Assembly (NCBI GenBank): GCA_024404215.1
Contig: JAKSQI010000001.1
Coordinates: 1-33,222, forward strand
DNA from: Oscillospiraceae bacterium
Lineage (GTDB): Bacteria; Bacillota; Clostridia; Oscillospirales; Oscillospiraceae
Direction: 5' to 3'
Length of the DNA: 33,222 nucleotides
The notes below the pieces were generated by a model. The model did no database searches. It was not told where the DNA came from and worked only from the letters and a program-made list of their open reading frames with translations. Both the position numbers and the translations under genes were made by a program. Below, in pieces: positions 3,911 through 28,044 of the stretch (its first letter is position 1; the number at the start of each line of letters is the position of its first letter).

Positions 3911-3925
3911 ACTGAAAATCTAATA

Positions 3926-4090
3926 CACGACAGCTCTCCGCAATGATGCGACAGTAAACCGAATGTTATCCGGCTTACCAGGCATGTACAGACAGAATTC
4001 TGCACACCCTTCGGCGGTATCCCCTTTGACCCCCTGCGGATTCTGCCGCGCAGGCGGAGGCTACTGATGTCAACCGCACCTCTATCAAAC
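3926..4090 (-). promoter_or_regulatory. lysine riboswitch (L-box) aptamer
   Basis: The minus strand reads GATAGAGGTGCG...AGTAGCC...GGGTCAAAGGGGATACCGCCGAAGGGTG.GCAGA...ACATGCCTGG...ACTGTCGC...GGAGAGCTG. This matches the conserved blocks of the B. subtilis lysC and T. maritima lysine riboswitches as I recall them. Confidence 0.85.
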
Positions 4091-4107
4091 CATATTCACG
4101 TGACCCA

Positions 4108-8809: not shown

Positions 8810-10219
8810 TTAAGCCTCGGCAGCGGCTTTAGCCTTGGCTGTGATGCCTTTGGTTTTCCAGCGGCCAATCCGATAATATACCAGAGTGGCAGCTGCATTG
8901 ATGACAACCGCTATGCCCAAACCCCAGAAGCTGCTGCGGGGGTCGCCCACCGGATGGGCCGGGCTTCGGGTAAGGTAGGCAATGAGATAGGCGGCGGGGA
9001 TGCGGATGACCGTTTGGGTAACCAGAGAAATCCACATGGGGCCCATGGCATCTCCGGCACCGCGGATAACACCGCCGAAGCTTTGACCGATGGCCATGAC
9101 CAGATACACCGGAATCATGGCAAAAATCAGCTGATAGCCCAGGTCAATCAGCTCCTGTGTTGTAGTGAAAAGTCCAATCATCCATTTACCGAACAGTATC
9201 ATAAGCGCAATCATGGTGAGAGAAACGGTCAAGCTCATGACAAAAACGGTGCGACAGCCTTGTTTAACCCGGTCCATGCGGCCGGCGCCAACATTTTGGC
9301 CGGTAAAGGTGGAGGCACTCATATTGAAGGTGGTGCTGGGAATCATGGCGAAAGCATCCACACGCAGCATAGCCGTGATGGCGGCAGTTACCATATAGCC
9401 CATGGCATTGTTCAGCCGCTGGATAACGATAGTGGAGAGCCACATAATGGCTTGAGCAATACCGTTAGGCAGGCCCAAACGGCAGACCGTGCCAACAACA
9501 TCCTTTTTCAAAAGCAGGCTGCGAAAATTCAGCCGGAAATAGCGGCGGCTCATAACAACCTTAACCAGACAGACAATGGCAGATAAAGTTTGGCCAATGA
9601 TAGTAGCATAGGCGGCGCCGGCAATGCCAAAGCCAAGTCCGGCTACAAACCAAATATCCAGAACGATATTCAGCAGCATGGTGCCCAGGAGAACCAGAAG
9701 AGGAAACACGGATTCCCCCATGCCCCTGAGAATGCCGGACATGATGTTATAAAAGCCATTGCCGGCCAAGCCGGCCAGGCAAATCAGCATATAGGTCCTG
9801 CCCATGTCGTAGCTTTCCACCGGTGCCTTAATGGCGTGGAGCATCCAGTCCAGACCCAGCAGACCAAAGGTGGTCAGTACTATGGACACCAAGGCAATTA
9901 GGGTAATGCTATTGCCAACACTGGTTTCCAGCTTGTCGTATTCCTGGGCACCAAAGTACTGAGAAACCATAACCATAACGCCGGAACCGATGGCAATAAA
10001 AAGCACCAAAAACAGATTTAAAATGGGGGAGGTAACACCAATGGCGCTGAGGGCCGCGTCACCGCAGTAGCGGCCTACCACAATGCTGTCAACAGTGCTG
10101 TAGGCCAGCTGAGCCAGGTTGCCCATCAGCAGGGGAACGGAAAACATGAGCAGACAGGTCAGGGGAGCCCCCTGGGTCATATCCTGTGCGCCGAAAAGAT
10201 GTTTGAATTTTGTCAGCAT
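8810..10219 (-). CDS. MATE family efflux transporter
   Basis: 12-TM profile. The start at 10219 aligns with the paralogue's N-terminus (MLTKFKHLFGAQD vs MNSVLTNFKKLFQGQD). It overlaps the upstream stop as ATGCTGA. The track start at 10270 is an alternative. Confidence 0.85.
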   Translation of the reverse strand: MLTKFKHLFGAQDMTQGAPLTCLLMFSVPLLMGNLAQLAYSTVDSIVVGRYCGDAALSAIGVTSPILNLFLVLFIAIGSGVMVMVSQYFGAQEYDKLETSVGNSITLIALVSIVLTTFGLLGLDWMLHAIKAPVESYDMGRTYMLICLAGLAGNGFYNIMSGILRGMGESVFPLLVLLGTMLLNIVLDIWFVAGLGFGIAGAAYATIIGQTLSAIVCLVKVVMSRRYFRLNFRSLLLKKDVVGTVCRLGLPNGIAQAIMWLSTIVIQRLNNAMGYMVTAAITAMLRVDAFAMIPSTTFNMSASTFTGQNVGAGRMDRVKQGCRTVFVMSLTVSLTMIALMILFGKWMIGLFTTTQELIDLGYQLIFAMIPVYLVMAIGQSFGGVIRGAGDAMGPMWISLVTQTVIRIPAAYLIAYLTRSPAHPVGDPRSSFWGLGIAVVINAAATLVYYRIGRWKTKGITAKAKAAAEA

Positions 10220-11714: not shown

Positions 11715-11752
11715 AAGGCAGAAAGAAATCCCCGCAGCCGGGCTGCGGGGAT
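11715..11752 (-). terminator. intrinsic terminator after the rhomboid gene
   Basis: ATCCCCGCAGC-CGG-GCTGCGGGGAT hairpin. The minus strand continues TTCTTTCTGCCTTTCCC. Confidence 0.7.
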
Positions 11753-11765
11753 GAAAGCCGGAATC

Positions 11766-12359
11766 TCAGGAATGGTAACGCCTACGACTGTTGCTGCCCC
11801 GGCCGCCGGTATAGTAAACGTTGCCGATAATTACACCGCAGACACCGCCCAGAATATGGGTCAGCTGAGAGATGTTATCCTTGGTAAAAATGCCGTCAAT
11901 AACCTGCTGGCCCAGGTACAGCGCCAGTACCACCAGCATGGTCAGAGGAATACTGCCGGAGCTGCGGCCGGTCATGGACAGCATAACAATCAGCATAAAG
12001 ACGATGCCGCTTGCCCCCAGTAGGGCGGATCCGGGAAAGAAAATGAATTGAACCAGTCCGGTAGAAAGGGCGGTGACAGCCATGGCCAGCAGCAGCCTCT
12101 TGCTGCCAAAGCGCTCCTCCAGGGGAGGGCCAACAACCAGCATCAGCAGAATATTGCCCATATAGTGGGACATGCTGCTGTGACCAAGGACGTGCAGGAA
12201 AAATCGGGGATAGGTCAAAGGGTCACGCAGAGAGGAACGATAAACACAGAAAAGCCTGGCGGTGGATGCGCCGGCGGTCAGCTTGTCCAAGCCAAGAATT
12301 GCCAGGCAGAGCAGGGCAAAGGTTAGGATAACGGGGGAATTGTAACGAATCTTTTTCAT
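11766..12359 (-). CDS. rhomboid family intramembrane serine protease
   Basis: LLGASGIVF (GxSG catalytic Ser) and THILGGVCGVIIG (His helix). It is a multi-TM protein. Confidence 0.85.
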   Translation of the reverse strand: MKKIRYNSPVILTFALLCLAILGLDKLTAGASTARLFCVYRSSLRDPLTYPRFFLHVLGHSSMSHYMGNILLMLVVGPPLEERFGSKRLLLAMAVTALSTGLVQFIFFPGSALLGASGIVFMLIVMLSMTGRSSGSIPLTMLVVLALYLGQQVIDGIFTKDNISQLTHILGGVCGVIIGNVYYTGGRGSNSRRRYHS

Positions 12360-15874: not shown

Positions 15875-15934
15875 ATAAATAGTTGCCAAAGTGTTCATTT
15901 TAATGGTAAAAACAATAAATATGAATGATTGATA

Positions 15935-15963
15935 TTGACGACTGTCAGGCGGCGTGATAGAAT
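15935..15963 (+). promoter_or_regulatory. sigma-A promoter of the cobalamin riboswitch leader
   Basis: TTGACG, a 17-nt spacer, then TAGAAT with TGa (extended -10). Confidence 0.7.
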
Positions 15964-15984
15964 CAGCCAAATTTAATACTTGTT

Positions 15985-16180
15985 TTCAGTGCTTCATTGC
16001 ACCGCTTAGGGCGATGAAGAGAATAGAGAATCATGTGAGAACCATGGACGGGGCCGCCACTGTATGTGCTCCGGGTGTGTGCGTTGACGAAAGTCAGTCA
16101 TTGGCAAATTGCTGAGAAGGCAGCATACATCCGCCGCTTTTGCGAGGAACACGAGTCAGGAGAACTGCTGGGAATTTGAA
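15985..16180 (+). promoter_or_regulatory. cobalamin (B12) riboswitch
   Basis: GAGAATCATGTGAGAACCATGGACGGGGCCGCCACTGTA matches the GGGAA..GGTGAGAATCC..CCCGCCACTGT core. GAGTCAGGAGAACTGC at 16153-16168 matches the B12 box AGTCAGGAGACCTGC. Confidence 0.8.
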
Positions 16181-16234
16181 GGGATTTCTGTGCACGGGAC
16201 GCTGTGCAGGGACTGTTTTTGTTGCAGGAAAACG

Positions 16235-16272
16235 GCTGCGGCACAGGCTTTTGTCTGTGCCGCGGCTTTTTT
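16235..16272 (+). terminator. terminator of the cobalamin riboswitch expression platform
   Basis: GCTGCGGCACAG-N8-CTGTGCCGCGGC followed by TTTTTT. Confidence 0.8.
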
Positions 16273-16362
16273 GTATAAACCGAATTGCTGCCGGAACTGG
16301 TGGCAAGGCTGGTTTTATTACCGATTCTTTGAGAATTCCAGGCCTCTTCCTTGTTGATTTTC

Positions 16363-16407
16363 TATCCCCCCTGGGGGCTTATCAGCGAAAAGAAGAAATG
16401 GTACAAT
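16363..16407 (+). promoter_or_regulatory. C/G-tract palindrome (site 1) abutting a sigma-A promoter
   Basis: TATCCCCCCTGGGGGCTTA (16363-16381) overlaps the -35 TTATCA. A 17-nt spacer leads to TACAAT (16402-16407), which is preceded by TGg. Confidence 0.6.
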
Positions 16408-16471
16408 TCCTCTCAAAGCGATGGGGGTAAAAGCCCGCGCAAAAATTAAATCACATTGTGGCCGACTGAAC

Positions 16472-16533
16472 AACAGCAGGCTTACCTAAAGTATCACCCT
16501 CGGGGGTGGTGTTGGGTAAGCCTGCTGTTTTTT
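16472..16533 (+). terminator. leader terminator (attenuator) upstream of the methyltransferase gene
   Basis: A 15-bp stem, AACAGCAGGCTTACC with GGTAAGCCTGCTGTT, encloses a CACCC/GGGTG inner hairpin. TTTTTT follows. It ends 25 nt before the ATG. Confidence 0.75.
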
Positions 16534-16558
16534 GGTTATCGCGGGATGGAGGAAACAG

Positions 16559-18046
16559 ATGAATCAGCAAGAGCGCGGGGAACGATGGGCTGACGGAAAG
16601 GGCTATGACAGCTACATCCAGGGGGAACTGCATTCCTTCCGTAAGGAAGCATGGAAACAGCAGCTGAGGCAGCATTTGCCTAAAAAGAATCTTCAAATCC
16701 TGGCTGTTGGAACAGGACCGGGCTTTTTCAGCTGCATTCTTTCTGAGCTGGGGTATCGGGCAACCGGCATTGATGCATCGGAAGGCATGTTGGCCTGTGC
16801 CCGTAAGAATGCGGAATGCTTGCAGGTGACACCTGAATTTCTGTTGATGGATGTTAACAGCCTGACCTTTCCGGATGAAAGCTTTGATGTTTTGGTAATG
16901 CGAAATGTAACCTGGACCTTGGAGCATCCGGAAAAGGTATATTCTGAGTTTAAGCGGCTGCTGAAGCCCAGGGGCATGCTGCTGATTTATGATGCCAACT
17001 GGCAGCTGCAGTTTTTTGACCCGGATTTGCGGCAGCGTGTGCTGGCTCGGGAAAAGGCCTATCGGGAAAAGTATGGTCGGGAGGAATTTGTTTCCCGAGG
17101 CGACATGGCTTATTATGCCACCGCCCCTTTGACTCATACCTACCGACCGGACTGGGACCGGGAGGTGCTGACCAATTTGGGCTTTGAGGTTTCCATAGAA
17201 GAGAACATTGGCAGAAGGGTTTATGAGCAGTGGGAAAAGGATTTGTATGCCGAGTCCCCTTTGTTTGAGATATGCGCAGTCAAGAAAGCGGAACCAGAGA
17301 CCCAAACCAACATGCATACCTACTGGCAGAAACGGGCGGAAACCTTTGGTTTTTTCCGCAAGCCGGAGGACGTGGATGCTATGGGGCGGGAGTATGCCCG
17401 TTATTTACCGGAGGGGCCTCTTCAGGTGCTGGATGCCGGTACGGGAACCGGCGTGATAGCTGCGGTTATGGCAAAGCTTGGCCATAAGGTTACTGCTGTT
17501 GACCTGTGTTCCAACATGCTGGAAAAGGCAAAGGAGAATCTGCGCAGTTTGGGACTGCAGGCGGATTTCTACTGCACCTCTGCCGGCGAACTGCCCTTCC
17601 CCGATGAAAGCTTTGATGTCGTTATCTCCCGCAATGTGACCTGGGCCCTGCCGGAGCCGGAGCATGTCATGGAGCAGTGGCGAAGGGTTCTCAAGCCCGG
17701 TGGCCTTTTGATTTATCGGGATGCCAATCACTACAACTACCTCTTTTTTGAAGAGGACCGGCAAAACCGAGAACGTATCATTGAATTGGCAGGCACCCCC
17801 CACGGAGACCATAACGATTCAAAGGAATATGATTATAATCTGTGTGATGAAACCGCCTACAATTTGCCTATGTCTAAGCTGAAACGTCCCGGACAATGGG
17901 ACGATATCATGCTGCCAAAGCTGGGCTTTGATATTTTAGCAGAGGAGCTTCGTTATCCCCAACGTCTGTTGAAATATGGCATAGCTGATGGCTACTATAC
18001 GGATTTTACCATAGTGGCCAGAAAGGCGGAAACAATAGAGGAGTGA
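16559..18046 (+). CDS. fused tandem class I SAM-dependent methyltransferase (two MTase domains)
   Basis: Two SAM-binding motifs, ILAVGTGPGFF and VLDAGTGTGVIA. Each is followed by FPDESFDV(L/V)..RNVTW.L..PE....(F/W).R.LKP.G.L. The ATG at 16559 follows GGAGGAAA. Confidence 0.85.
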   Translation: MNQQERGERWADGKGYDSYIQGELHSFRKEAWKQQLRQHLPKKNLQILAVGTGPGFFSCILSELGYRATGIDASEGMLACARKNAECLQVTPEFLLMDVNSLTFPDESFDVLVMRNVTWTLEHPEKVYSEFKRLLKPRGMLLIYDANWQLQFFDPDLRQRVLAREKAYREKYGREEFVSRGDMAYYATAPLTHTYRPDWDREVLTNLGFEVSIEENIGRRVYEQWEKDLYAESPLFEICAVKKAEPETQTNMHTYWQKRAETFGFFRKPEDVDAMGREYARYLPEGPLQVLDAGTGTGVIAAVMAKLGHKVTAVDLCSNMLEKAKENLRSLGLQADFYCTSAGELPFPDESFDVVISRNVTWALPEPEHVMEQWRRVLKPGGLLIYRDANHYNYLFFEEDRQNRERIIELAGTPHGDHNDSKEYDYNLCDETAYNLPMSKLKRPGQWDDIMLPKLGFDILAEELRYPQRLLKYGIADGYYTDFTIVARKAETIEE

Positions 18047-18050
18047 TGAA

Positions 18051-19031
18051 ATGGGACGCTATATCCTGAAACGGCTGCTGTGGCTGATACCGGTCATGCT
18101 GGTAATCTCCCTGATAGCCTTCCTTTTGATGTATCTGTCACCCGGCGATCCTGCGACGATTTACCTGTCCATGGGTGGTGATTCGCCTTCCGCAGAGGCC
18201 GTGGCAGAGCTGAGGGAAAAGATGGGACTGAATCGGCCTCTGTACGAACAGTTTGGAAGCTGGCTGATAAATCTGCTGCACGGTGATTTGGGAACATCCT
18301 TCTTTACGAAAAACCCGGTTATTGAGGATATTGCAACCCTATTCCCCAACACCCTTAAGCTTACGTTACTGGGCATGCTGGGAACACTGGTGATTTCCAT
18401 ACCCTTGGGCATTCTATCTGCAGTAAAGGCCAATAAGCTGACGGATAACATAATACGTGCCGGGTCCTTTGTTGTCGGTTCCATGCCGGGATTCTTTGCT
18501 GCCCTGCTGCTGATTTATCTTTTGGGTGTCAAGCTCCGTTGGCTTCCCACAATAAGCTCAGGATCCGCCAAGGGCATCATCCTGCCTGCCTTGACCTTAG
18601 CCTTGACAATGGCCCCCAATTATATCCGACAGATTCGAGCTGAGATTGTTAAAGAACTGGGAGAGGATTACATCCGAATGTTCCGGGGCAGAGGTATCAA
18701 AGAACGAATGATTCTTTATAACGGTGCACTGAAAAGTGTTATGCCCTCCATTCTGACCATTGCCGGAATGAACATGGGGCATTTGTTGGGGGGAACTTCC
18801 ATCATTGAAATGGTCTGTACCTACCAGGGGCTGGGGCGCTTGGCGGTAAATTCCATTACCAACCGTGATTATCCCCTGATGCAGGGGTTTGTTCTAATGA
18901 TGGCAGGTATTTATGTCATTATCAATCTGGTGGTGGATATTCTGCACGCCATGGCAGACCCGAGAGTAAAGCTTCGTATTTTGGCGGAGAACGGAGGTGG
19001 CTACCGACATGGAAAAAAGAAGGCGGTTTGA
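18051..19031 (+). CDS. ABC transporter permease (peptide/nickel family, OppB/NikB-like)
   Basis: Typical N-terminus MGRYILKRLLWLIPVMLVIS and LSPGDPA. Contains an EAA-like loop. Confidence 0.9.
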   Translation: MGRYILKRLLWLIPVMLVISLIAFLLMYLSPGDPATIYLSMGGDSPSAEAVAELREKMGLNRPLYEQFGSWLINLLHGDLGTSFFTKNPVIEDIATLFPNTLKLTLLGMLGTLVISIPLGILSAVKANKLTDNIIRAGSFVVGSMPGFFAALLLIYLLGVKLRWLPTISSGSAKGIILPALTLALTMAPNYIRQIRAEIVKELGEDYIRMFRGRGIKERMILYNGALKSVMPSILTIAGMNMGHLLGGTSIIEMVCTYQGLGRLAVNSITNRDYPLMQGFVLMMAGIYVIINLVVDILHAMADPRVKLRILAENGGGYRHGKKKAV

Positions 19032-19842
19032 CCCGGCAGTAGTCCGGCTTTTGGTTTGGTCCGGCATAGTTCTTCTGCTTCTTGTTTTGGCCTGGGTGGG
19101 TCCTCGCTTTATCCACCATGACCCCTATGAGGTTAATCTGCTGCAGATAACGGCGAGGCCTTCGGCAGAGTATCTCATGGGCACAGATTACCTGGGGCGC
19201 TGCACTCTTTGCCGTCTTATTACCGGAGCAGCCCGGTCCATATATGCGTCTTTAGCCGTGGTAGCTATCACTTTTATCATTGGAACAGCCATAGGAACCG
19301 TTTGCGGTTTTATCGGCGGGGCTTTTGATACGGTGGTTATGAGATTTGTAGATGCCGTGCAGGCCTTTCCCAGTCTCGTTTTTACCATTGCCATTGCGGC
19401 CATGCTGGGCAGCGGCATGGGCAACTGTATCATCGCCATGTCCTGTATTAACTGGACCCAATATGCCCGGCTTTCCCGCAGCCAGGTGCTGCAGGTGAAG
19501 GAGCGCACCTTTGTTAAGGCGGCCCGAACCACCGGCATGACCAATCGGCAGATTCTTTTTAAAACCATTTTGCCTAACAGTATGACGCCCCTGATTGTAT
19601 CGGCCAGCATGCATGTTGGAAACACAATCCTGGGTTTTTCCGGCCTAAGCTTTCTGGGGCTTGGTACCATGCCCCCCTTCCCGGAGTGGGGGAATATGCT
19701 CAACGACGGCAAGGCAACCCTGCAGACTGCACCCTGGACCGTTATTTTCCCGGGACTGGCCATTTTGCTTGTTGTCATGATTATGGGTATGTTCGGCGAC
19801 AGCGTGAATGAAGCGCTGAATCCGAAGAAAAATACAAATTAA
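19009..19842 (+). CDS. ABC transporter permease (OppC/NikC-like)
   Basis: Six-TM BPD_transp_1 profile. The ATG at 19009 follows GGAGGTGG. A GTG at 18997 is an alternative start. Confidence 0.88.
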   Translation: MEKRRRFDPAVVRLLVWSGIVLLLLVLAWVGPRFIHHDPYEVNLLQITARPSAEYLMGTDYLGRCTLCRLITGAARSIYASLAVVAITFIIGTAIGTVCGFIGGAFDTVVMRFVDAVQAFPSLVFTIAIAAMLGSGMGNCIIAMSCINWTQYARLSRSQVLQVKERTFVKAARTTGMTNRQILFKTILPNSMTPLIVSASMHVGNTILGFSGLSFLGLGTMPPFPEWGNMLNDGKATLQTAPWTVIFPGLAILLVVMIMGMFGDSVNEALNPKKNTN

Positions 19843-19863
19843 CAAACGAGAAAGGAAATTCAA

Positions 19864-21504
19864 ATGAAAAAAAACATGCTGAAAAAACTGACAGCCCTCA
19901 TGCTGTCCGTGCTGATGCTGCTGGCTCTCTTTGCCTGTGGCAGCAAGCCTGCGGATACTGCAGTGAGCCAAACTCCTGCTTCTTCGGATAATGCGGCGCA
20001 GTCAAGCACCGGAACGGATAATTCTGCAGCCACAGAAGAGAGACACATTGAGTTTACCTTCGGTGCAAACTCTGCCGCTAACAACGCAACGGTATTTACC
20101 TTTGACCCTGCTGTAGATTATAACGCATCAAAAGCAACAGCCATGGGCATGGCAGAGACTCTGTTGGCCTTGGATGCTAACAAGGAGGTTCAGCCAAAGC
20201 TGGCAACTGCTATTGAAAACACGGATGACACGACCTGGGTCTTGACCATTCGTGACGGTGTTACTTTTTCTAATGGGAAAGAACTGACCGCAGAAATGGT
20301 AAAAAAGTCTTTAGAGTATACCCTGTCTGTCAATGAACGCTTGAGCGCATTGGCGGATGTTGCCTCCATGGAGGCTGATGGCCAGACCTTGACCATTCAT
20401 ACCAATGCTGTCGTTGCTATTTTCGACCGCGTTTTGACAGAGCCCAACATGGCTATTTTTGATGTGGAGGGCACCGAGAATCTGGACAAAAATATGATTG
20501 GTACCGGTGCCTATATCCTGACCGATATGGACAGCGAAGGAAACTGCACTTTGACCCGCAACGACAATTACTGGCAGGGTACCCCCATTGCTGAAACCAT
20601 TCACACTAAGGCCAATCTGGATTCAGCAGCCATTACTTTGGCTCTCCAGTCCGGTGAAATTGACTGGTCCACCGGTGTTTCCACCAGTGACCTGGCCTTG
20701 TTTGCCGGCAACCCGGATTATGAGGTTCAAGAATACAATGCTGGTCGAGCCTTCTATCTGTATGTAAACCCCAACTATACCTTTACCATGGATCCTGCCC
20801 TGCGTGAAGCCCTTCAGTATGCCATAGACCGCGATGCCATCATTGCCGGTGTATACAGTGGTTATGGCTTCTCAACCCAGTCCATTTTCCCTGACTATTC
20901 CGAATACTACGACGCATCCTTGCAGCAGGCGGCTTATGATAAGGATAAGGCTGCCCAGATTTTGGCTGATGCCGGTTATGCGGATGCCGATGGCGATGGC
21001 TTCCTGGAAAAGGATGGTCAGAAGGTCACCCTGAATATTCTCTGCTATGCTAAAAACCAGTTTGATACCCTCAGCGAGGTTCTGCAGTCCATTCTCAAGG
21101 GCTATGGCATTGATGCCACCATTCAGGTCAGCGACACCATTAGCGATGATGCCAATGCCGGCGAATTCAATCTGGCTACCTATGGCTACAATACCCTGAC
21201 CCTGGGCGATTGCTACAATTATCTGTATCCTGTGTTCCATTCTCAAGGTACCGCAAACTTTAACGACCTTAACGATGCTGAAATTGACGGCTGGCTGGAT
21301 GAACTGAAGGTTACCAGTGACATGTCCAAACGTGTAGAGCTGGTTAAGAAGATTCAGGAGAAGGTTTATGCATCCAATGAATATATCTATATCATGCATG
21401 TAAAAAACACCATGGTATCCAAGGCCGGCATTGTTAATCTGCCTCCCATGTTTGGCGGTGACCAAATGGATAACTGCGTCCTCTGGACTGTTGACCGCAA
21501 ATGA
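19864..21504 (+). CDS. ABC substrate-binding lipoprotein, family 5 (OppA/NikA-like)
   Basis: Signal peptide with lipobox LALFAC-G. Length of 546 aa and motifs fit SBP_bac_5. Confidence 0.88.
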   Translation: MKKNMLKKLTALMLSVLMLLALFACGSKPADTAVSQTPASSDNAAQSSTGTDNSAATEERHIEFTFGANSAANNATVFTFDPAVDYNASKATAMGMAETLLALDANKEVQPKLATAIENTDDTTWVLTIRDGVTFSNGKELTAEMVKKSLEYTLSVNERLSALADVASMEADGQTLTIHTNAVVAIFDRVLTEPNMAIFDVEGTENLDKNMIGTGAYILTDMDSEGNCTLTRNDNYWQGTPIAETIHTKANLDSAAITLALQSGEIDWSTGVSTSDLALFAGNPDYEVQEYNAGRAFYLYVNPNYTFTMDPALREALQYAIDRDAIIAGVYSGYGFSTQSIFPDYSEYYDASLQQAAYDKDKAAQILADAGYADADGDGFLEKDGQKVTLNILCYAKNQFDTLSEVLQSILKGYGIDATIQVSDTISDDANAGEFNLATYGYNTLTLGDCYNYLYPVFHSQGTANFNDLNDAEIDGWLDELKVTSDMSKRVELVKKIQEKVYASNEYIYIMHVKNTMVSKAGIVNLPPMFGGDQMDNCVLWTVDRK

Positions 21505-22451
21505 GCAGGCTGCTGGATATCAATGGGATTGATGTCAGCTATGGAAACGCCCCCATTCTGAGGGGCGTTTCCATGCACGTCAAGGACGGTGAAATTGTAG
21601 GTGTTGTTGGTGAGTCCGGCAGCGGAAAGAGCACGACTATTTATGCTACCCTGGGTATTTTGGGGAATGGCGGAAAGGTAACAGCCGGCTCCATTCATTA
21701 CGATGGCCGGGATTTGCTCGCCCTTTCACAGGAGGACCTGAGAAAGATGCGGGGCAAGGAAATGTCCCTTGTTGCACAAAACCCTGTGACATCCTTCCAT
21801 CCCATACGAAAAATCAATAAACAGCTGAAGGAACTGGTTGCCTGTCACTCCGGTATGACCTATGCGGAAGCAGAGGAGCATATGTGTGAAATCATGGCAA
21901 AAATGAACTTGAAGGATGGAAAGCGCCTGCTTAACAGCTATGCCTTTGAACTGTCCGGTGGCATGTGCCAGAGGGTATCCATTGCCATGGCTCTGGTGTT
22001 GAGTCCAAAGCTCCTGCTGGCAGATGAGCCCACCAGCGCACTGGATGTTACCGTTCAAAAGCAGGTTGTGGAGGAGATGCGGAAGCTAAGGGATGAGTAT
22101 GGTAACTCCACCCTGATTGTATCCCATAACATGGGGGTTATTTCCTATATCTCTGATCGGGTTTATGTCATGTTTGCCGGCCGGGTTATGGAGTATGGGG
22201 AGAAGGGTGCCGTGATAAAAAGGCCCATGCATCCCTACACCAAAAATTTGATTGCGGCTGTGCCAACCATGGACGCACCCATGCCGACCGGCGTCCGCCC
22301 CACCGGGTTTGACCGGACAGTTCCCGGCTGTGTCTTTTATCAAAGCTGCCCCTGCCGACAGGAAGTCTGCGCCTTGTCAGATCCGGAGCCGGTAGAAACA
22401 GAATCCGGTCATTTTGTCAAATGCCATTGTATTCGGGAGGGAAAGCTATGA
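21501..22451 (+). CDS. ABC transporter ATP-binding protein (OppD/NikD-like)
   Basis: Walker A GESGSGKST, signature LSGGMCQR, Walker B LLLADEPT. ATGA overlap with the binding-protein gene. Confidence 0.92.
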   Translation: MSRLLDINGIDVSYGNAPILRGVSMHVKDGEIVGVVGESGSGKSTTIYATLGILGNGGKVTAGSIHYDGRDLLALSQEDLRKMRGKEMSLVAQNPVTSFHPIRKINKQLKELVACHSGMTYAEAEEHMCEIMAKMNLKDGKRLLNSYAFELSGGMCQRVSIAMALVLSPKLLLADEPTSALDVTVQKQVVEEMRKLRDEYGNSTLIVSHNMGVISYISDRVYVMFAGRVMEYGEKGAVIKRPMHPYTKNLIAAVPTMDAPMPTGVRPTGFDRTVPGCVFYQSCPCRQEVCALSDPEPVETESGHFVKCHCIREGKL

Positions 22452-23203
22452 ATGCCGTTGAAGTGGAAAACCTGAAGGTGAGCTTTTATTCCCATAAAAG
22501 CAACTCCTTTGTCCATGCCGTAGATGACGTTAGCTTTACTCTTGGCGAAAATGAGTTTTTGGGCTTGGTTGGTGAATCCGGCTGCGGAAAAAGCACCATT
22601 GCCCGTATGCTGATGGGGCTGCAGATTCCCGACGGCGGCACCATTCGCATCAAAGGGAAAGAAATCAAGCCCCCCTATCCTCACAACGTGTACAAGCAGA
22701 TTCAGATGATTTATCAAATGCCTCAGGACTCCTTCGACCCCCGCCGGAAGGTGGGGACCTGTATTACTGAAATACAGAGTAATTTCGGCGTAAACAAGAG
22801 GGAGGCCAGAGACTTTACCATGCATCTGCTGACCAGGGTTGGCTTGACGGAGGAGTACTATAATAAGTATCCCCATGAGATGAGCGGTGGAGAATGTCAG
22901 CGGGCGGCCATTGCTCGTTCTCTGTCCTTGAAGCCGGATGTACTGATTTGCGATGAGCCTACCAGTGCCTTGGATGTAAGTGTACAGGCCCAGGTGGTGG
23001 AGCTCCTGGCTCAGCTTCGCAAGGAAATGAAGCTGGGGGTCCTCTTTATTTCCCATGACCTGGCGTTGGTACAAGGTCTCTGCGATTCTGTCATGGTCAT
23101 GTATCAAGGCAAAATTGTGGAACGGGGCAGCGCAAAAGAAATCACCCAAAACCCCCGGGAAGACTATACACGCAAGCTTTTAAGTTCAGTCTTGTTGGTC
23201 TAA
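22448..23203 (+). CDS. ABC transporter ATP-binding protein (OppF/NikE-like)
   Basis: GESGCGKST, MSGGECQR, VLICDEPT. The ATG at 22448 overlaps the upstream stop and follows GGGAGGGAAAG. Confidence 0.92.
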   Translation: MNAVEVENLKVSFYSHKSNSFVHAVDDVSFTLGENEFLGLVGESGCGKSTIARMLMGLQIPDGGTIRIKGKEIKPPYPHNVYKQIQMIYQMPQDSFDPRRKVGTCITEIQSNFGVNKREARDFTMHLLTRVGLTEEYYNKYPHEMSGGECQRAAIARSLSLKPDVLICDEPTSALDVSVQAQVVELLAQLRKEMKLGVLFISHDLALVQGLCDSVMVMYQGKIVERGSAKEITQNPREDYTRKLLSSVLLV

Positions 23204-23244
23204 CCTGTTTAAAAGCCGGGGCAAAATGAATAATTGCTGGAAAG

Positions 23245-23290
23245 TATCCCCCCTGGGGGCTTAACAAAATCCCGCGATTTGTTGTACTAT
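23245..23290 (+). promoter_or_regulatory. C/G-tract palindrome (site 2) abutting a sigma-A promoter
   Basis: TATCCCCCCTGGGGGCTTA (23245-23263), identical to site 1, then TTAACA, an 18-nt spacer, and TACTAT. Confidence 0.6.
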
Positions 23291-23351
23291 TATCCCAGTA
23301 GCCCTTCCCCCTTTGCCGATGGGGTAGGGAAAATCCGATGAGGTGAACCCT

Positions 23352-23501
23352 ATGGCAGAAAACCGTGAATGGAAACTAACTGAGAAGGAAGAAAAGCTGT
23401 TGGCCATGCTGCGTGAAATTCGATTTGGTGAAGTGGTGATTCATGTGGCGGATGGTCAGCCGGTGCGTGCGGAAGAGGTCCGCAAGAGTATTAAATTCTG
23501 A
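23352..23501 (+). CDS. small DUF2292/YezD-like protein (49 aa), absent from the ORF track
   Basis: MAENREWKLTEKEEKLLAMLREIRFGEVVIHVADGQPVRAEEVRKSIKF. The ..L..I.FG.V.I.V.DG.....E...K pattern is that of the YezD family. GAGGTGA RBS 6 nt upstream. Confidence 0.7.
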   Translation: MAENREWKLTEKEEKLLAMLREIRFGEVVIHVADGQPVRAEEVRKSIKF

Positions 23502-23533
23502 CGGTTTGGAAAACAAGAAAAATACTTGTGTTT

Positions 23534-23578
23534 TATCCCCCAGGGGGGCTTTAAAGCAAAGCCGACCGGTGTTATACT
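23534..23578 (+). promoter_or_regulatory. C/G-tract palindrome (site 3) abutting a sigma-A promoter
   Basis: TATCCCCCAGGGGGGCTTTA (23534-23553), then TTTAAA, a 17-nt spacer, and TATACT preceded by TGt. Confidence 0.6.
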
Positions 23579-23616
23579 AAGACCGTTAATTCCTCTCATA
23601 ACCTTTCTGGGAAGAG

Positions 23617-23645
23617 CCGCACTCCGGTGAGGGAGTGCGGTTTTT
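23617..23645 (+). terminator. leader terminator (attenuator) upstream of the His-rich gene
   Basis: CCGCACTCC-N6-GGAGTGCGG followed by TTTTT. It lies 65 nt before the ATG. Confidence 0.7.
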
Positions 23646-23709
23646 CATAGGGCTCCGGCAGACTGCCGGGAGAGGGATGGAGTCGAAATAAGAATAAAGG
23701 AGTACCGTT

Positions 23710-24138
23710 ATGCATTTGGAACACGATATTGTGGGCAGCGAGCATGAGCATACGCACACCCACGAGCATACCCACGAGCACACCCATGAAAATGGCGAGA
23801 CCCATCAGCATGCCCATACCCATGAGCATTGTCACAGCCACGGCCATGACCATGAGCATACCCATGACCATGCTCATGACCACGACCACGCCCATGAGCA
23901 TTGCCACGACCACGAGCACAGCCATGATCACGGCCATGGGGAGGCCGATAACCGCCTCTATGCATTGATGAATTACATGGCCGGCCATAATGCCGACCAC
24001 ACCAAGGAATTGGCTGAACTGGCTGTCCAGCTGAAGGACAGCGGCAAGGAATCTGCCTATAACAAGGTAATGGCCGCTGTAGAAGAATTCGGAAAGGGCA
24101 ATGACCTGCTGGCAGAGGCCCTGAAGGAACTGAACTGA
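23710..24138 (+). CDS. histidine-rich (H-x-H repeat) putative metal-binding protein with a C-terminal helical domain
   Basis: By my count there are about 33 His in the first 76 residues, in a near-perfect alternating HxH array (HEHTHTHEHTHEHTH...HDHEHSHDHGHG), plus 2 Cys. An ordinary roughly 60-aa helical tail follows. AAAGGAG RBS. Confidence 0.8.
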   Translation: MHLEHDIVGSEHEHTHTHEHTHEHTHENGETHQHAHTHEHCHSHGHDHEHTHDHAHDHDHAHEHCHDHEHSHDHGHGEADNRLYALMNYMAGHNADHTKELAELAVQLKDSGKESAYNKVMAAVEEFGKGNDLLAEALKELN

Positions 24139-24223: not shown

Positions 24224-25186
24224 TTAAAGCTCCTCCGGGGGCAAATAACCGGCGGGATTCCGCAGCGGACAGCTGTCCATAAGCTCAGCCAGGGCGGCAC
24301 GGTAGCCGACAGCATCCGAGGCCTTCATCAGCTTTTTCAGCGGGCGGCGGTTATCGGAAAAGGCCTGGCCCAGGTAGGCCCAATGCTCTTTCATTCGCAT
24401 CAGCACCTGCCGCTCCTGCCCCAGCAGGGAGATGTAAGCCTCCCAGAGACTATCCAAAAAGGGGAGAAGCTCTTCCTTTGTCAATGGGGTGCTGCCCTTC
24501 AGCTCGGCAAAGAGCTTTGGGTTGGCGGCTGCTCCGCGGCCCAGCATTACCATGTCGGTATCCGGGTTGGCGGAGGCAAAGGCAGAAACCGACTCGCGGT
24601 CAAAAAGGTTGCCGTTGTAGCAAAGGGGCAGGCGGCTGTTGGCCTTGGCATAAGCCCACAGTTCGGCATCCGGCAGGCCCTTATACTGCTGCCGACGCAC
24701 CCGGGGGTGAAGAATCAGCAGGGAGGCCGGATATTGGTTGTACAGCTCCAGCAGGGCCGGAAACTCCTCCGGGCTTTCCATGCCCAGTCGGGTTTTCAGG
24801 GAGATGGCAATGGGGGAGCCGGCAAATACACCGTCCAGCAGAGCATTGAGCAGGTCCGGTTGGTTCAGCAGGCCGGCGCCCTTTTTTTTGCTGACCATGG
24901 TGCCGGAGGGGCAGCCCAGATTCAGGTTGACCTCGGTATAACCCATGTCCGCCAGGCTGCGGATGGCCCAAAGCATATCCTCCGGGTTGTGCCCAATAAG
25001 CTGGGGAATAACCCCCTTGTCTGCCTGAGCTTCTACCTCACGCAGCTCCCGGGGGGTGAAAACCCGGTCCTGAGTAGGGGAGAGGAAGGGGGTGTACCAG
25101 GCGTCCGGGGCGTCAAAGTGCCGGGTCAGAACCCGGCGCCATACGTGGCCGGTTACCCCCTGCATGGGGGCGCAGATGTATCGCAT
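24224..25186 (-). CDS. tRNA-dihydrouridine synthase (Dus) family flavoprotein
   Basis: APMQGVTG ... EVNLNLGCPS ... TIM-barrel Dus motifs. Confidence 0.8.
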   Translation of the reverse strand: MRYICAPMQGVTGHVWRRVLTRHFDAPDAWYTPFLSPTQDRVFTPRELREVEAQADKGVIPQLIGHNPEDMLWAIRSLADMGYTEVNLNLGCPSGTMVSKKKGAGLLNQPDLLNALLDGVFAGSPIAISLKTRLGMESPEEFPALLELYNQYPASLLILHPRVRRQQYKGLPDAELWAYAKANSRLPLCYNGNLFDRESVSAFASANPDTDMVMLGRGAAANPKLFAELKGSTPLTKEELLPFLDSLWEAYISLLGQERQVLMRMKEHWAYLGQAFSDNRRPLKKLMKASDAVGYRAALAELMDSCPLRNPAGYLPPEEL

Positions 25187-25193
25187 GAGCTGC

Positions 25194-27188
25194 TTACCGC
25201 CGGCCCAGATCCTGGGCTACATAGTGGGCGGTGTGAGTGGCTTCATAGATGTTTTTAGGCATGACGCAGTCACCCACCTGATAGAACTCGGGAACGGCAA
25301 AACGCAGAGCACTTGCCTCCTCACGAAGGGGGCGCTGGCCCACGGCATAGATGATGGTATCGGCGGGGAAGGTAACCTGTCCGCTTTCCCCGTCGGGCAG
25401 GAAGATGCCGGTTCCAAAACGGAAGCCGGGCTCAGCCTTGGCACCGGTGTATTCGCACAGCAGCCCCTCTTCGGTTACGGCCAGAGCTCGGGTGGCAGGG
25501 CTGACCTTGACCTTCTGCTTCTTCAGCTCACCGGTCAGTGCCAGACCATGCAGTACATTGCCGCCGTCATTGAGCCTGGGCTCCATTTCCACCACGGTGA
25601 CCTCATGGCCTCGTGAGGACAGCCAGACGGACAGCTCCAGGCCCACCAGACCGCCGCCCAGAATCACTACCCGCTTTCCGGCCTTTTCCGGGTGGGTATA
25701 GATTTCCTCGGCGCCGAATACATGGGGGCTGTCAATACCCGGCAGCTTGGGCTTCACCGGACGGGCGCCCAAAGCACAGATAACGGCATCCGGGGCAAGG
25801 TCACGAATCAGGTCGGCGGTGACCTCGGTGTTCAGCCGAACCTCAATGTTGGGCTGACGGCTGATGAGCCGGGTCTGCAGGGCAATGTATTGGCTCAGCT
25901 TTTCTTTAAAGGGCACCTGTTCTTCACAAAGCAGGGCACCGCCCAAACGGTCCGTCTTCTCGCAGAGAATGACCTGATGGCCGTTTTCTCCGGCGGTGAG
26001 GGCGGCCTGCATGCCTGCCATGCCTCCGCCGGCAACCAGCACCCGCTTGCTTACCTGGCGAATGGGGGCCTGATGCATCTCGTACTCGTGGCCGATTTCC
26101 GGGTTAATGGCACAGGGGATTATGGCGGATTGCATGTGGGTGGAGAAGCAGAAGAGACAGCGCATGCACTTGCGAACCTCATCCTCCCGTCCGGTCAGCA
26201 GCTTTTTGGGCAGGTCCGGGTCAGCAATCAGCCCCCTGGCCATTTCCACAACATCGGCCTTGCCGGAGGCAATGATTTCTTCCAGCAGCTCCGGCTCACT
26301 GAGAGCGCCTACCGTTGCAACCGGGGACTGCTTCACATGCTTTTTGATTTCGGCAGCATATTTTACATTGGCACCGTCTGCCAGAAACATGCTGGGGTGG
26401 GTAACGGTAAACACCTCGGCTACCTCGTGGCTGCCGGTGGATACATGAATCAGATCCACATGGCCGTCCAGCTGCTTGGCCTGGGCAATGCCCTCCTCAA
26501 TGTGGTAGCCGCCGGGATGAACCTCATCACCCACCATGCGCATCTCAACCGGAAAGCCCTTGCCGCAGAGCTGATGAATGCGGTCGGCGATGGCAACGGC
26601 CAGACGGGCGCGGTTTTCCATGCTGCCGCCCCATTTGTCCTTGCGGTTGTTACTGGGGTCCAAAAACTGGGTTATCAGCCAGCCGTGACCGCCATGGACG
26701 GTAACCATGCCGAAGCCCAACTGCTTGGCATAGAGGGCGGCTCGGGCGTGCTGTTCAATGACCTCTAGAATCTGTTCCTCTGTCATGGCGTGGATTTCCT
26801 GGCCGAAGGGACTGATGCCGTCAACCGGGCCATAAAGGGGGGCACCCAGGGAAGCAGAATGGTAGGCAGCATTACCGGCGTCAATGAGCTCAATGGAGGC
26901 TACAGCGCCGTGGCGGGAAATGGAGTGGGCAATGTCACTGAGCTTCTGGTTTTCTGCATCGTTCCAGAGATTAATCTGCAGCCCTCTGGCCCGGCCGTTC
27001 TCATTGGGGCAGGCGTCGCCGATGCAGACGCTGGCAGCGCCGCCGATGGCCTTGCGCTCATAATAGCCGCAGCTGTAGCGCTCCGGCTCAATGGCTACAC
27101 CGGTTGGGGAGTTGAAAATGCGGTTACGGAAAAACTGATTGCCCAGTACAATGGGCTCAAACAAATGGGGGTATTTGAATGCAGACAT
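25194..27188 (-). CDS. OYE-type NADH:flavin oxidoreductase fused to an FAD/NAD(P)-binding domain (2-enoate / 2,4-dienoyl-CoA reductase-like)
   Basis: N-terminal OYE barrel (VHGGHGWLITQFL), the Fe-S motif CMRCLFC...PC, then two Rossmann motifs VAGGGMAGM and ILGGGLVGLE. Confidence 0.88.
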   Translation of the reverse strand: MSAFKYPHLFEPIVLGNQFFRNRIFNSPTGVAIEPERYSCGYYERKAIGGAASVCIGDACPNENGRARGLQINLWNDAENQKLSDIAHSISRHGAVASIELIDAGNAAYHSASLGAPLYGPVDGISPFGQEIHAMTEEQILEVIEQHARAALYAKQLGFGMVTVHGGHGWLITQFLDPSNNRKDKWGGSMENRARLAVAIADRIHQLCGKGFPVEMRMVGDEVHPGGYHIEEGIAQAKQLDGHVDLIHVSTGSHEVAEVFTVTHPSMFLADGANVKYAAEIKKHVKQSPVATVGALSEPELLEEIIASGKADVVEMARGLIADPDLPKKLLTGREDEVRKCMRCLFCFSTHMQSAIIPCAINPEIGHEYEMHQAPIRQVSKRVLVAGGGMAGMQAALTAGENGHQVILCEKTDRLGGALLCEEQVPFKEKLSQYIALQTRLISRQPNIEVRLNTEVTADLIRDLAPDAVICALGARPVKPKLPGIDSPHVFGAEEIYTHPEKAGKRVVILGGGLVGLELSVWLSSRGHEVTVVEMEPRLNDGGNVLHGLALTGELKKQKVKVSPATRALAVTEEGLLCEYTGAKAEPGFRFGTGIFLPDGESGQVTFPADTIIYAVGQRPLREEASALRFAVPEFYQVGDCVMPKNIYEATHTAHYVAQDLGRR

Positions 27189-27277
27189 GGAATAGCCTCC
27201 TTATTATCGTTTTATGGGAAACAGAAATACGGATGAGAGCATCGGCTGTTAAAGACCGGGTGGCAGGATGCGACACA

Positions 27278-27347
27278 GGTATTGCAGTGTAGGTATTGCA
27301 GTGTAGGCATTGCAGCGCAGGCATTGCAGCGCAGGCATTGCAGTGTA
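27278..27347. repeat. 5 x 14-bp tandem repeat (GGYATTGCAGYGYA)
   Basis: Two copies of GGTATTGCAGTGTA, two of GGCATTGCAGCGCA, and one of GGCATTGCAGTGTA, followed by a degenerate sixth unit. It is intergenic, 90 bp upstream of the reductase start. Confidence 0.9.
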
Positions 27348-27378
27348 GGTGATATACCGTGTGGCTCGTCCTCCCCAC

Positions 27379-27426: not shown

Positions 27427-28044
27427 TTACGGCTGCAGATGCCCCTTGGAGAATTCACAGCCGCAGTAGTCCTGGCGATAGAGATCATACTCCTTGGAGA
27501 GAATGGTGCTGCGCTTGAAGCCTTCCTTTTTCTTAAAATCCGAGGGCAGCCAGGCCACCCCGTATTTCTCGGCCAAACTGCGGCCTATGGCATTGATGCG
27601 GGGAGCGTCCTTATGGGGGCTGACGGTAAGGGTGGCGGCAAAATAGTCATACCCTCCCTCTTTAGCGGCCTTGGCAGCCTCCTCCAGACGGAGGATAAAG
27701 CAGGCGGTGCAGCGGGCGCCGCCCTCCGGCTCCTGCTCCAGTCCGGCAGCAGCTTCAGCAAAGGGAACGTGGTCATAGGGGGCCACCACCAGGGAAACCG
27801 GATTGGGGTATTGGGCCCGCTCCAGCAGCTGCTGCTGGGCCTGCATCCGGCGCTGATACTCTTCGGCGGTGTCCATATTAGGGTTGTAGTAGAAGACGGT
27901 AACCCGGAAATAACGGGCTAAGTATTCCAGCACATAGCTGCTGCAAGGGCCGCAGCAGCTGTGAAGCAGCAGGGTGGGCTTCTCGCCGGCCTTCACGTGG
28001 CCGGCGATAATGTCATCCATCAGCCGCTGGTAGTTTTCTTTCAT
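27427..28044 (-). CDS. queH: epoxyqueuosine reductase QueH (DUF208)
   Basis: LLHSCCGPCSSYV, ARCTACF and DYCGCEFS motifs characteristic of QueH. Confidence 0.88.
   Translation of the reverse strand: MKENYQRLMDDIIAGHVKAGEKPTLLLHSCCGPCSSYVLEYLARYFRVTVFYYNPNMDTAEEYQRRMQAQQQLLERAQYPNPVSLVVAPYDHVPFAEAAAGLEQEPEGGARCTACFILRLEEAAKAAKEGGYDYFAATLTVSPHKDAPRINAIGRSLAEKYGVAWLPSDFKKKEGFKRSTILSKEYDLYRQDYCGCEFSKGHLQP

Follow-up and report, generated by a model that had tools for sequence, protein, structure and literature searches.

We analysed 33,222 nt of the genome of an Oscillospiraceae bacterium (assembly GCA_024404215.1, contig JAKSQI010000001.1, positions 1 to 33,222), here called the window, in which a C-tract/G-tract palindrome of the form TAT-C5/6-N-G5/6-CTT occurs in three copies, at 16363, 23245 and 23534. 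The first copy stands upstream of an operon that begins with a double S-adenosylmethionine (SAM)-dependent methyltransferase gene and continues with the five genes of a Nik/Opp-type ATP-binding cassette (ABC) importer, the second upstream of a small open reading frame (ORF) of the DUF2292 family, and the third upstream of the gene for a His-rich protein (Table 1). A first-pass annotation of the window had placed these same transcription units under the three promoters beside the palindromes, and Pfam agrees. The methyltransferase gene has an ATG start and a GGAGG ribosome-binding site, and its orthologues, at 55-67% identity, are found in metagenome-assembled genomes of Oscillospiraceae and Lachnospiraceae. 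The top NCBIfam match of the substrate-binding protein is the nickel-binding model Opp5A_nikA (3.8e-85, below the model cutoff). For the DUF2292 ORF, the ORF lister gives a GTG start at 23343; the ATG at 23352 has a GAGGTG ribosome-binding site.

Re-reading the window returned the three sites with the coordinates and sequences first claimed for them, and a repeat finder groups them into one family (D14). Sites 1 and 2 are the same 19-mer, and because their identity stops within 2-3 nt of it they do not derive from a segmental duplication. Reverse-complementing the 12-nt core of sites 1 and 2 gives exactly the core of site 3, whose TAT and CTT flanks are unflipped; this bears out the earlier description of a flipped core between kept flanks; a MAFFT alignment of the three site regions found no likeness outside the element and its promoter. 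Written as a dyad, the window element is TA-N2-C5-N-G5-N2-TA, a form in which the flipped core of site 3 is tolerated. There are three exact occurrences of CCCCCNNGGGGG in the window against 0.13 expected, and none of 100 dinucleotide-preserving shuffles reached three copies, so the repeat is indeed unlikely to have arisen by chance in 33 kb. When one mismatch is permitted the signal is diluted (8 found vs 3.7 expected). One further weight-matrix match, on the minus strand at 24227-24244 (16.3 bits), is regarded as chance because it falls within the final codons of a Dus gene and has no -10 box.

All three sites fall between genes and share the strand of the gene that follows, with a -10 box 24-25 nt further 3'. 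An independent consensus scan reported the same three promoters as the first-pass annotation, and in P1 the opening TT(A) of the -35 hexamer is itself part of the operator flank. We compared the register across 34 non-redundant sites from more than 20 contigs, metagenome loci included. Their consensus is tAtCCCCCCgGGGgGCTT, and the general form of the element is a 17-19 bp dyad, (T)A-N-C5/6-N0-2-G4-6-N-T(TA). The -10 box (TAnnnT) begins 21 nt after CTT in 28 of the 34 sites, the register seen at P1, and 20 or 22 nt after it in 4; no -10 box was found downstream of CTT in the remaining 2. An extended -10 TG is present in 18/34 sites, and the information content at the -35 positions is near zero past the TT of CTT. 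The palindrome had been described as lying against the -35 boxes: the register holds, while the hexamers are unconserved beyond the operator's own TT. Taking the start as 7 nt after the predicted -10 box, which is the basis of all promoter positions quoted here, the core would span -48 to -37 with its centre at about -42.5, and the 19-bp element about -51 to -33. The upstream, -35-adjacent position given previously stands, with its centre corrected from near -45 to about -42.5. The operator lies upstream of the -35 position in 32/32 sites with a recognisable -10 box.

Table 1. Coordinates of the candidate operator sites, promoters, genes and other features in the window (all rows unless a locus number is given) and of two protein families at related loci.
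Feature	Position	Strand	Basis or remark
Site 1, 19-bp candidate operator TATCCCCCCTGGGGGCTTA	16363..16381	+	repeat finder, shuffle statistics, weight-matrix score 27.3 bits
Site 1 C/G core, 12 nt	16366-16377	+	
Site 2, 19-mer identical to site 1	23245..23263	+	repeat finder, shuffle statistics, weight matrix
Site 3, TATCCCCCAGGGGGGCTTTA	23534..23553	+	repeat finder, shuffle statistics, weight-matrix score 26.1 bits
Promoter P1, TTATCA-17-TACAAT, extended -10 TG	16379..16407	+	consensus scan
Promoter P2, TTAACA-18-TACTAT	23261..23290	+	consensus scan
Promoter P3, TTTAAA-17-TATACT, extended -10 TG	23550..23578	+	consensus scan
Double SAM-dependent methyltransferase, first operon gene under P1	16559..18046	+	Pfam, two Methyltransf_11 domains
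Nik/Opp-type ABC importer, five genes	18051..23203	+	Pfam
ABC permeases	18051-19031, 18997-19842	+	Pfam
ABC substrate-binding protein	19864-21504	+	Pfam
ABC ATPases	21501-22451, 22421-23203	+	Pfam
DUF2292 small ORF	23352..23501	+	Pfam PF10055
His-rich protein, 142 aa	23710..24138	+	HxH repeats, then conserved C-terminal YMxxHNxxHxxEL domain
Control layer 5' of site 1: promoter TTGACG-17-TAGAAT, riboswitch, terminator	15935..16277	+	promoter/terminator scan
Cobalamin riboswitch	15970-16186	+	Rfam RF00174, 69.4 bits
Terminator of cobalamin riboswitch	16234-16277	+	terminator scan
Leader hairpin, 21-nt arms then T6	16469..16537	+	repeat finder (I19), fold z-score -5.8
His-rich family members	window 23710-24138; L006 3728-4102; L011 9671-9979; L014 3033-3302; L027 8515-8751; L013 9722-10273		
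Recurrent methyltransferases	window 16559-18046; L001 5949-6791; L011 2602-3393; L033 560-1318		
Recurrent methyltransferases, L035	277-852, 2808-3617, 7183-7971		

The first-pass annotation had found no regulator gene in the window; a tblastn search with the PF02583 regulator described below returned nothing significant there, and the main window ORFs scanned with Pfam contain no transcription-factor domains. We therefore give the evidence from related loci, which carry L numbers. The closest methyltransferase orthologue (67% identical) is at L001, where a 99-aa PF02583 (CsoR/RcnR) gene, followed by a Cys-rich AF_0155-like gene, is divergent from a long array of Peripla_BP_2, methyltransferase, FecCD, ABC ATPase, MatE, double methyltransferase and Nik-type ABC genes. 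Between the genes of L001 the element occurs three times: as TAACCCCCCGGGGAGCTTGCCG pointing towards the regulator gene, as TAACCCCCGGGGGAGTTTG pointing towards Peripla_BP_2, and as TAACCCCCCGGGGAGCTTACAA-17-TATAGT 5' of MatE and the double methyltransferase. In L004, from the isolate Candidatus Paralachnospira sp. LCP21S3_A2, the orthologous operon likewise has the element upstream of it, in the variant C6TGGGAG, and so does that of L002/L003, where the element reads TAACCCCG-N3-CGGGGTTA and lies 23 nt before TACCAT. Site 1 is thus conserved at orthologous loci, 5' of the methyltransferase/ABC operon, in four other species.

Gut and rumen Clostridia have hundreds of homologues of the regulator that are 70-85% identical to it. 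Scanning species-representative genomes with the regulator protein gave 28 loci, of which 24 (L004-L027) are clostridial; L028-L031 were left out as distant relatives (30-37% identity). The element is present at 14 of the 24 clostridial loci; in 12 of them its distance from the regulator gene is at most about 500 nt. It lies immediately 5' of the regulator in L007, L008, L012, L021 and L027, and in L004, L005, L016 and L020 a divergent transporter operon shares it or has a paired copy. In L006, L011 and L014 it stands 5' of a two- or three-gene operon of the His-rich protein, the regulator and sometimes the AF_0155-like gene, and in L023 and L024 it heads a cbiM(-PDGLE)-cbiQ-cbiO-regulator operon (the L023 CbiM begins MHMADALL). 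With L001 and the metagenome locus L034, element and PF02583 gene co-occur at L001, L004-L008, L011, L012, L014, L016, L020, L021, L023, L024, L027 and L034. Neighbourhood clustering placed PF02583 at 20 loci and other regulator families only at isolated, single loci; the motif recurs beside this one family in the related genomes. At two of these loci a single dyad sits between back-to-back divergent promoters (L005 9911-9919, L020 9925-9934), with -10 boxes 23-27 nt to either side; the regulator is driven by one promoter, while the other serves a FecCD-type importer in L005 and small membrane proteins in L020. At L009 and L010, regulators of this clade are preceded not by the C/G dyad but by another inverted repeat, ATCCCGGCGAAAATCGGGTAT (L009 ~4060-4100, L010 ~9900-9950), which overlaps TATGAT; this could be an operator that has diverged, placed as a repressor's would be.

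An 18-nt weight matrix built from 18 sites was used to scan 396 kb that included the window. It gave 21 matches of at least 18 bits, the next score being 16.8 bits. All 21 are in the same promoter register and beside regulator or nickel/cobalt uptake genes, and no strong match falls within confirmed coding sequence, which is not the scatter of a dispersed repeat that the first-pass annotation had considered. Since a degenerate pattern with 14-16 specified bases would yield hundreds to thousands of chance matches in a scan of all genomes, the regulator protein and the exact 19-mer were searched instead. The 19-mer matched 10 JGI metagenome contigs, four of which represent one same locus. The promoter context is the same in 9/9 matched contigs with enough downstream DNA; the tenth ends 179 nt past the site.

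Four of the five distinct metagenome loci with a called gene carry the gene classes of the regulon. The 19-mer precedes CbiM/NikM in L040 (start MHIPDN), a Nik-type permease in L038, a methyltransferase in L035, L036, L037 and L039 (followed in L035 and L037 by Peripla_BP_2, FecCD and ABC genes) and another methyltransferase in L033. In L032 it precedes a small membrane protein, the same protein that is divergent from the regulator in L020, and in L034 the regulator gene itself is divergent from the site. The 11.8-kb contig L035 contains five sites; a CbiA/ParA-family nucleoside triphosphatase (possibly CooC-like) follows a site there, as does a CobW/HypB-family GTPase with DUF364/DUF4213 ("putative heavy-metal chelation") and DUF4198 genes behind it. 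Overall, the genes under the operator encode CbiM/NikM energy-coupling factor (ECF) transporters, Nik-type and FecCD-type ABC importers, the CobW/HypB GTPase, His-rich proteins and the regulator. From these gene classes we take the regulon to be one of nickel/cobalt acquisition and allocation. No efflux target of the clostridial clade was found among the loci examined.

The first-pass annotation had noted a CsoR/RcnR-type architecture; this is supported by operator likeness and by the co-occurrence with PF02583, and can now, as far as sequence comparison carries, be narrowed to nickel/cobalt sensors. Both the window element and the 34-site consensus have the G/C-tract architecture from which type 1 and type 2 CsoR/RcnR operators were defined (PMC3902906). 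NcrB of Leptospirillum ferriphilum binds ATCCCCCTGGGGGGGAT and protects -4 to +25, as determined by footprinting and one-hybrid assay (PMC3046157). For NreA of Mesorhizobium, mutational analysis identified a 19-bp operator, TATCCtctcgggggGGATA, with the consensus TATCCYCtccrgGRGGATA, or in short TATCC-N9-GGATA, in the -30 to -12 spacer (PMC12724321). The window element agrees with the NcrB site at 13-14 of 17 positions, 13 in the case of sites 1 and 2, and with the NreA site at 14 of 19, and because these mapped sites are near-identical to it we narrow the assignment to the InrS/NcrB/NreA-like branch. The NcrB and NreA systems are similar in their G/C-tract dyads of 17-19 bp with A/T ends and in their Ni-responsive His-Cys-His-Cys (H-C-H-C) sensors. 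They differ in that NcrB and NreA repress nickel efflux/resistance operons, whereas the window targets are importers and metal-handling proteins, and in the promoter-proximal flank (GCTT in the window vs GGAT(A)) and position (-51 to -33 in the window). Type 2 CsoR operators (Streptomyces lividans, ATATACCCCTNAGGGGTATAT) and type 1 RcnR operators (TACT-G6-N-AGTA) have flanks TAC/GTA or TACT/AGTA rather than TAT/CTT, effectors that are Cu(I), or Ni/Co for efflux control, and repressor-type promoter positions.

On these grounds the element is very probably an operator of the CsoR/RcnR family. We also consider it likely that the three sites serve a Ni(II)/Co(II) sensor of that family (PF02583), of a clostridial clade closest to InrS and encoded elsewhere in the genome; its gene would lie outside the window. 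The comparative data likewise support the earlier proposal of one dyad-symmetric protein operator common to the three promoters. The kind of operator is known, and its promoter position and import-type regulon are unusual. The context typical of the family, an overlap with the spacer, -10 box or start of an efflux or detoxification operon, was not found at these sites; efflux context is a typical but not a defining feature of CsoR/RcnR operators.

The top PDB match of the regulator is InrS of the cyanobacterium Synechocystis PCC 6803 (5FMN, E = 1.4e-16), its closest solved relative. An N-terminal HxHVH motif is common to both, as are the Cys/His/Cys ligands: H12/H14, C46, H71 and C75 of the regulator align with H21, C53, H78 and C82 of InrS. 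All of 120 homologues have H12, H14, H71, H74, C75 and H78, and 119 have C46; H10, D15 and P16 are nearly invariant. The regulators of the related genomes have the W-X-Y-Z fingerprint His-Cys-His-Cys, with the W histidine on an N-terminal extension. Judged by these residues, the regulator is a predicted H-C-H-C sensor with two extra invariant histidines and is distinct from InrS itself, to which the clostridial clade adds H74, H78 and D-P after the His motif. The predicted clade signature, H-x-H-x-H-D-P ... C ... H-x-x-H-C-x-x-H, appears invariant and widespread in Clostridia. A published study of a PF02583 similarity network assigns H-C-H-C Ni/Co clusters to NreA/NcrB and to InrS, and describes a further cluster as "likely" Ni/Co from genomic context (PMC8643695). 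Our literature searches found no paper on this clade or its regulon.

The well-studied InrS site, at nrsD, overlaps the Pribnow box (PMC3320959), where InrS represses an exporter, unlike the sites described here. InrS is also reported to bind upstream of nik and to enhance nik expression (PMC7055735, PMC11672702); it is the only family member reported to act in this way on a nickel import operon, and in this it would resemble the present system. The characterised metal sensors of the family lose DNA affinity on metal binding (PMC11672702, PMC3902906, PMC7055735, PMC3046157, PMC12724321). Since metal releases these sensors while importers and G3E GTPases are needed under scarcity, activation by the apo form is suggested. 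The operators through which NcrB, NreA and (at nrsD) InrS repress have been mapped to the spacer, -10 box or start site, none of which is ever overlapped by the present sites. The direction of control, which we infer from family allostery, target class and geometry, would thus be positive: given the family assignment, we lean slightly towards a DNA-bound form that activates rather than represses.

When nickel or cobalt is scarce, the metal-free tetramer would bind the dyad and, from about -42.5, would assist RNA polymerase at promoters devoid of a -35, much as a class II activator does; a parallel is the reported enhancement of nik expression by apo-InrS. Once metal is bound, the protein would leave the DNA and the acquisition genes would fall silent. 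In the window, the genes so controlled would be the B12-riboswitch-associated methyltransferase/Nik-type ABC operon, the DUF2292 ORF and the His-rich protein. Beyond the window, we propose, tentatively and somewhat short of even confidence, that the metal-free clade acts as a class II-type activator whose dyad at about -42.5 replaces the -35 across the whole Ni/Co acquisition regulon. Under the same reservation, that regulon might consist of ECF and ABC importers, G3E GTPases, His-rich partner proteins and recurrent SAM methyltransferases.

Class II activator-dependent promoters have CRP or FNR centred at -41.5. The promoters described here are similar in that the dyad is about 42 bp upstream of the inferred start and abuts or overlaps the -35 position, the -35 hexamer is unconserved, and the spacing is strictly fixed; they differ in that the protein fold is unrelated and the start sites are predicted. 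We know of no activating surface in CsoR-family proteins.

Several observations weigh against this reading of the operator and of its mode of control. The centre at -42.5 depends on predicted -10 boxes, and about 10 regulator loci (L009/L010, L013, L015, L017, L018 and others) have no element. Many of the promoters have an extended -10 TG, with which they could be active in the absence of a -35 or an activator, and a protein at -51 to -33 would then repress them. The fixed register could have the simple cause that the operator's TT also provides the first bases of a weak -35. Members of the family normally repress their own genes, and here the regulator's own promoter is built like the others. 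For the His-rich protein, a role as a sink induced by metal would be plausible as well.

Several of these points bear on a doubtful but real possibility, that operator and family are as given but that the protein, once on the DNA, simply represses by blocking the -35 region. The allostery could then be reversed, with metal as a co-repressor as in NikR, or the genes could be induced by metal excess or by another metal such as Zn or Cu. The characterised members of the family do repress, with InrS at nik as the single reported exception. The 19-bp element covers the first 3 nt of the -35 position, the 18 of 34 promoters with an extended -10 TG may need no activation, the single dyads between back-to-back promoters (L005, L020) fit simple occlusion, and the His-rich protein could be a metal-induced buffer. 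However, with canonical allostery such a repressor would silence importers precisely under metal scarcity, and reversed allostery is without precedent in the CsoR/RcnR family. In addition, the repressive sites of the closest relatives overlap the spacer, -10 or start rather than lying upstream of the -35, and a spacing fixed in 28/34 sites across many genera is more typical of stereospecific contact with RNA polymerase.

It is improbable that another family (NikR, Fur, ArsR or MerR-type) binds the palindrome and that the proximity of PF02583 reflects mere membership of the regulon. The PF02583 gene could itself be a target, and the operator was assigned by sequence; against this, 13-14 of 17-19 positions are shared with the mapped NcrB/NreA operators, the design of G/C tracts with AT flanks is specific to CsoR/RcnR operators (PMC3902906), and only PF02583 recurs as a transcription-factor family beside the sites (20 loci). 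Still less probable is that RNA polymerase or an alternative sigma factor reads the palindrome directly, as a -35 or UP substitute with no dedicated regulator. Such an element would explain the fixed distance to the -10 box and the way in which the palindrome stands in for a conserved -35, but the dyad tolerates flipping (site 3), single dyads serve divergent promoters, one functional gene class and one adjoining regulator family are involved, and the -10 is that of an ordinary sigma-A promoter. A dispersed repeat with no regulatory role, or a hairpin such as a terminator, which a short G/C-rich palindrome in several copies might bring to mind, can practically be set aside, given that the strong matrix matches are all promoter-proximal and outside confirmed coding sequence, that the 396-kb matrix scan and the 10 metagenome 19-mer matches show a promoter register rather than a REP- or MITE-like pattern, that the folds of the three sites are no more stable than shuffled sequence (z = +0.27, -0.02, -0.62) and have no U-tract, and that L001 cores exist without any loop (CCCCCCGGGG).

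The methyltransferase/ABC operon has a second upstream control unit, about 90 nt upstream of site 1, that consists of a promoter, a cobalamin riboswitch and a terminator. The operon therefore seems to be under two tandem control layers, B12 and metal. L002 also has a cobalamin riboswitch (11722-11936), between its methyltransferase and ABC genes. The riboswitches of the window and L002 and the Opp5A_nikA match together indicate cobalt alongside nickel, and the tandem of riboswitch and operator suggests one cobalt importer controlled by its end product and by metal. Permissive Rfam searches of 15900-16600 and 23200-23730 returned the cobalamin riboswitch alone and no NiCo riboswitch, and none was found by Rfam in 17 related loci either. 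Within the P1 transcript, the hairpin at 16469-16537 lies directly 5' of the methyltransferase ribosome-binding site, about 20 nt before the start codon; it looks like a terminator or attenuator and matched no Rfam family.

The leader of the His-rich gene (23585-23715) is strongly structured (z = -4.6), with a 9-bp G/C hairpin followed by U5 at about 23617-23646 and a CU-rich 5' stretch that pairs with GGGAGAGGGA further 3'. The 11-mer AATTCCTCTCA occurs both in the P1 region (16405-16415) and in this leader (23588-23598); because its register to the -10 box differs between the two leaders, it was excluded from the element. Elsewhere in the window, a 14-nt unit, AGGCATTGCAGTGT, forms 5.2 tandem repeats (27277-27349, 91% identity) in the intergenic region between the start of a flavin mononucleotide (FMN)/pyridine-nucleotide oxidoreductase gene (25194-27188, minus) and the end of queH (27427-28044, minus). 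A lysine riboswitch on the minus strand (3923-4092, 80.6 bits) lies 5' of a 162-aa ORF without a Pfam match (3375-3863) and also 5' of the ORF at 2362-3102, which matches the C-terminal half of the Na_H_antiporter family (NhaC-type).

The His-rich protein of the window is homologous to one that is co-operonic with the regulator (cluster C7). Its homologues lie between operator and regulator gene in L006, L011 and L014, and in L013 its C-terminal domain, characterised in the family by the motif YMxxHNxxHxxEL...FEAAN, is fused to the N-terminus of the regulator. No relative was found in Pfam, NCBIfam or PDB. As it is co-operonic with the sensor in three genomes and fused to it in L013, the YMxxHNxxHxxEL protein may be a physical partner of the sensor. 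Class I SAM methyltransferases also recur, as first or internal genes of operons under the operator; their top NCBIfam matches are corrinoid-protein-associated CpaM-like models, all below cutoff.

Gut and rumen Clostridia need nickel enzymes, and cobalt for B12, and to our knowledge the control of nickel and cobalt uptake in these organisms is largely uncharted. The analysis gives many uncultured Oscillospiraceae and Lachnospiraceae a concrete candidate for the sensor family, its operator and its regulon. It also offers a basis for a Ni/Co-related annotation of importers, His-rich proteins, DUF2292, DUF364, DUF4198 and a number of methyltransferases. In textbooks, CsoR/RcnR proteins act by derepression. 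Only for InrS has import been reported to be under positive control, which is poorly understood there, and a large natural set of promoters with one fixed geometry would provide a direct test case.

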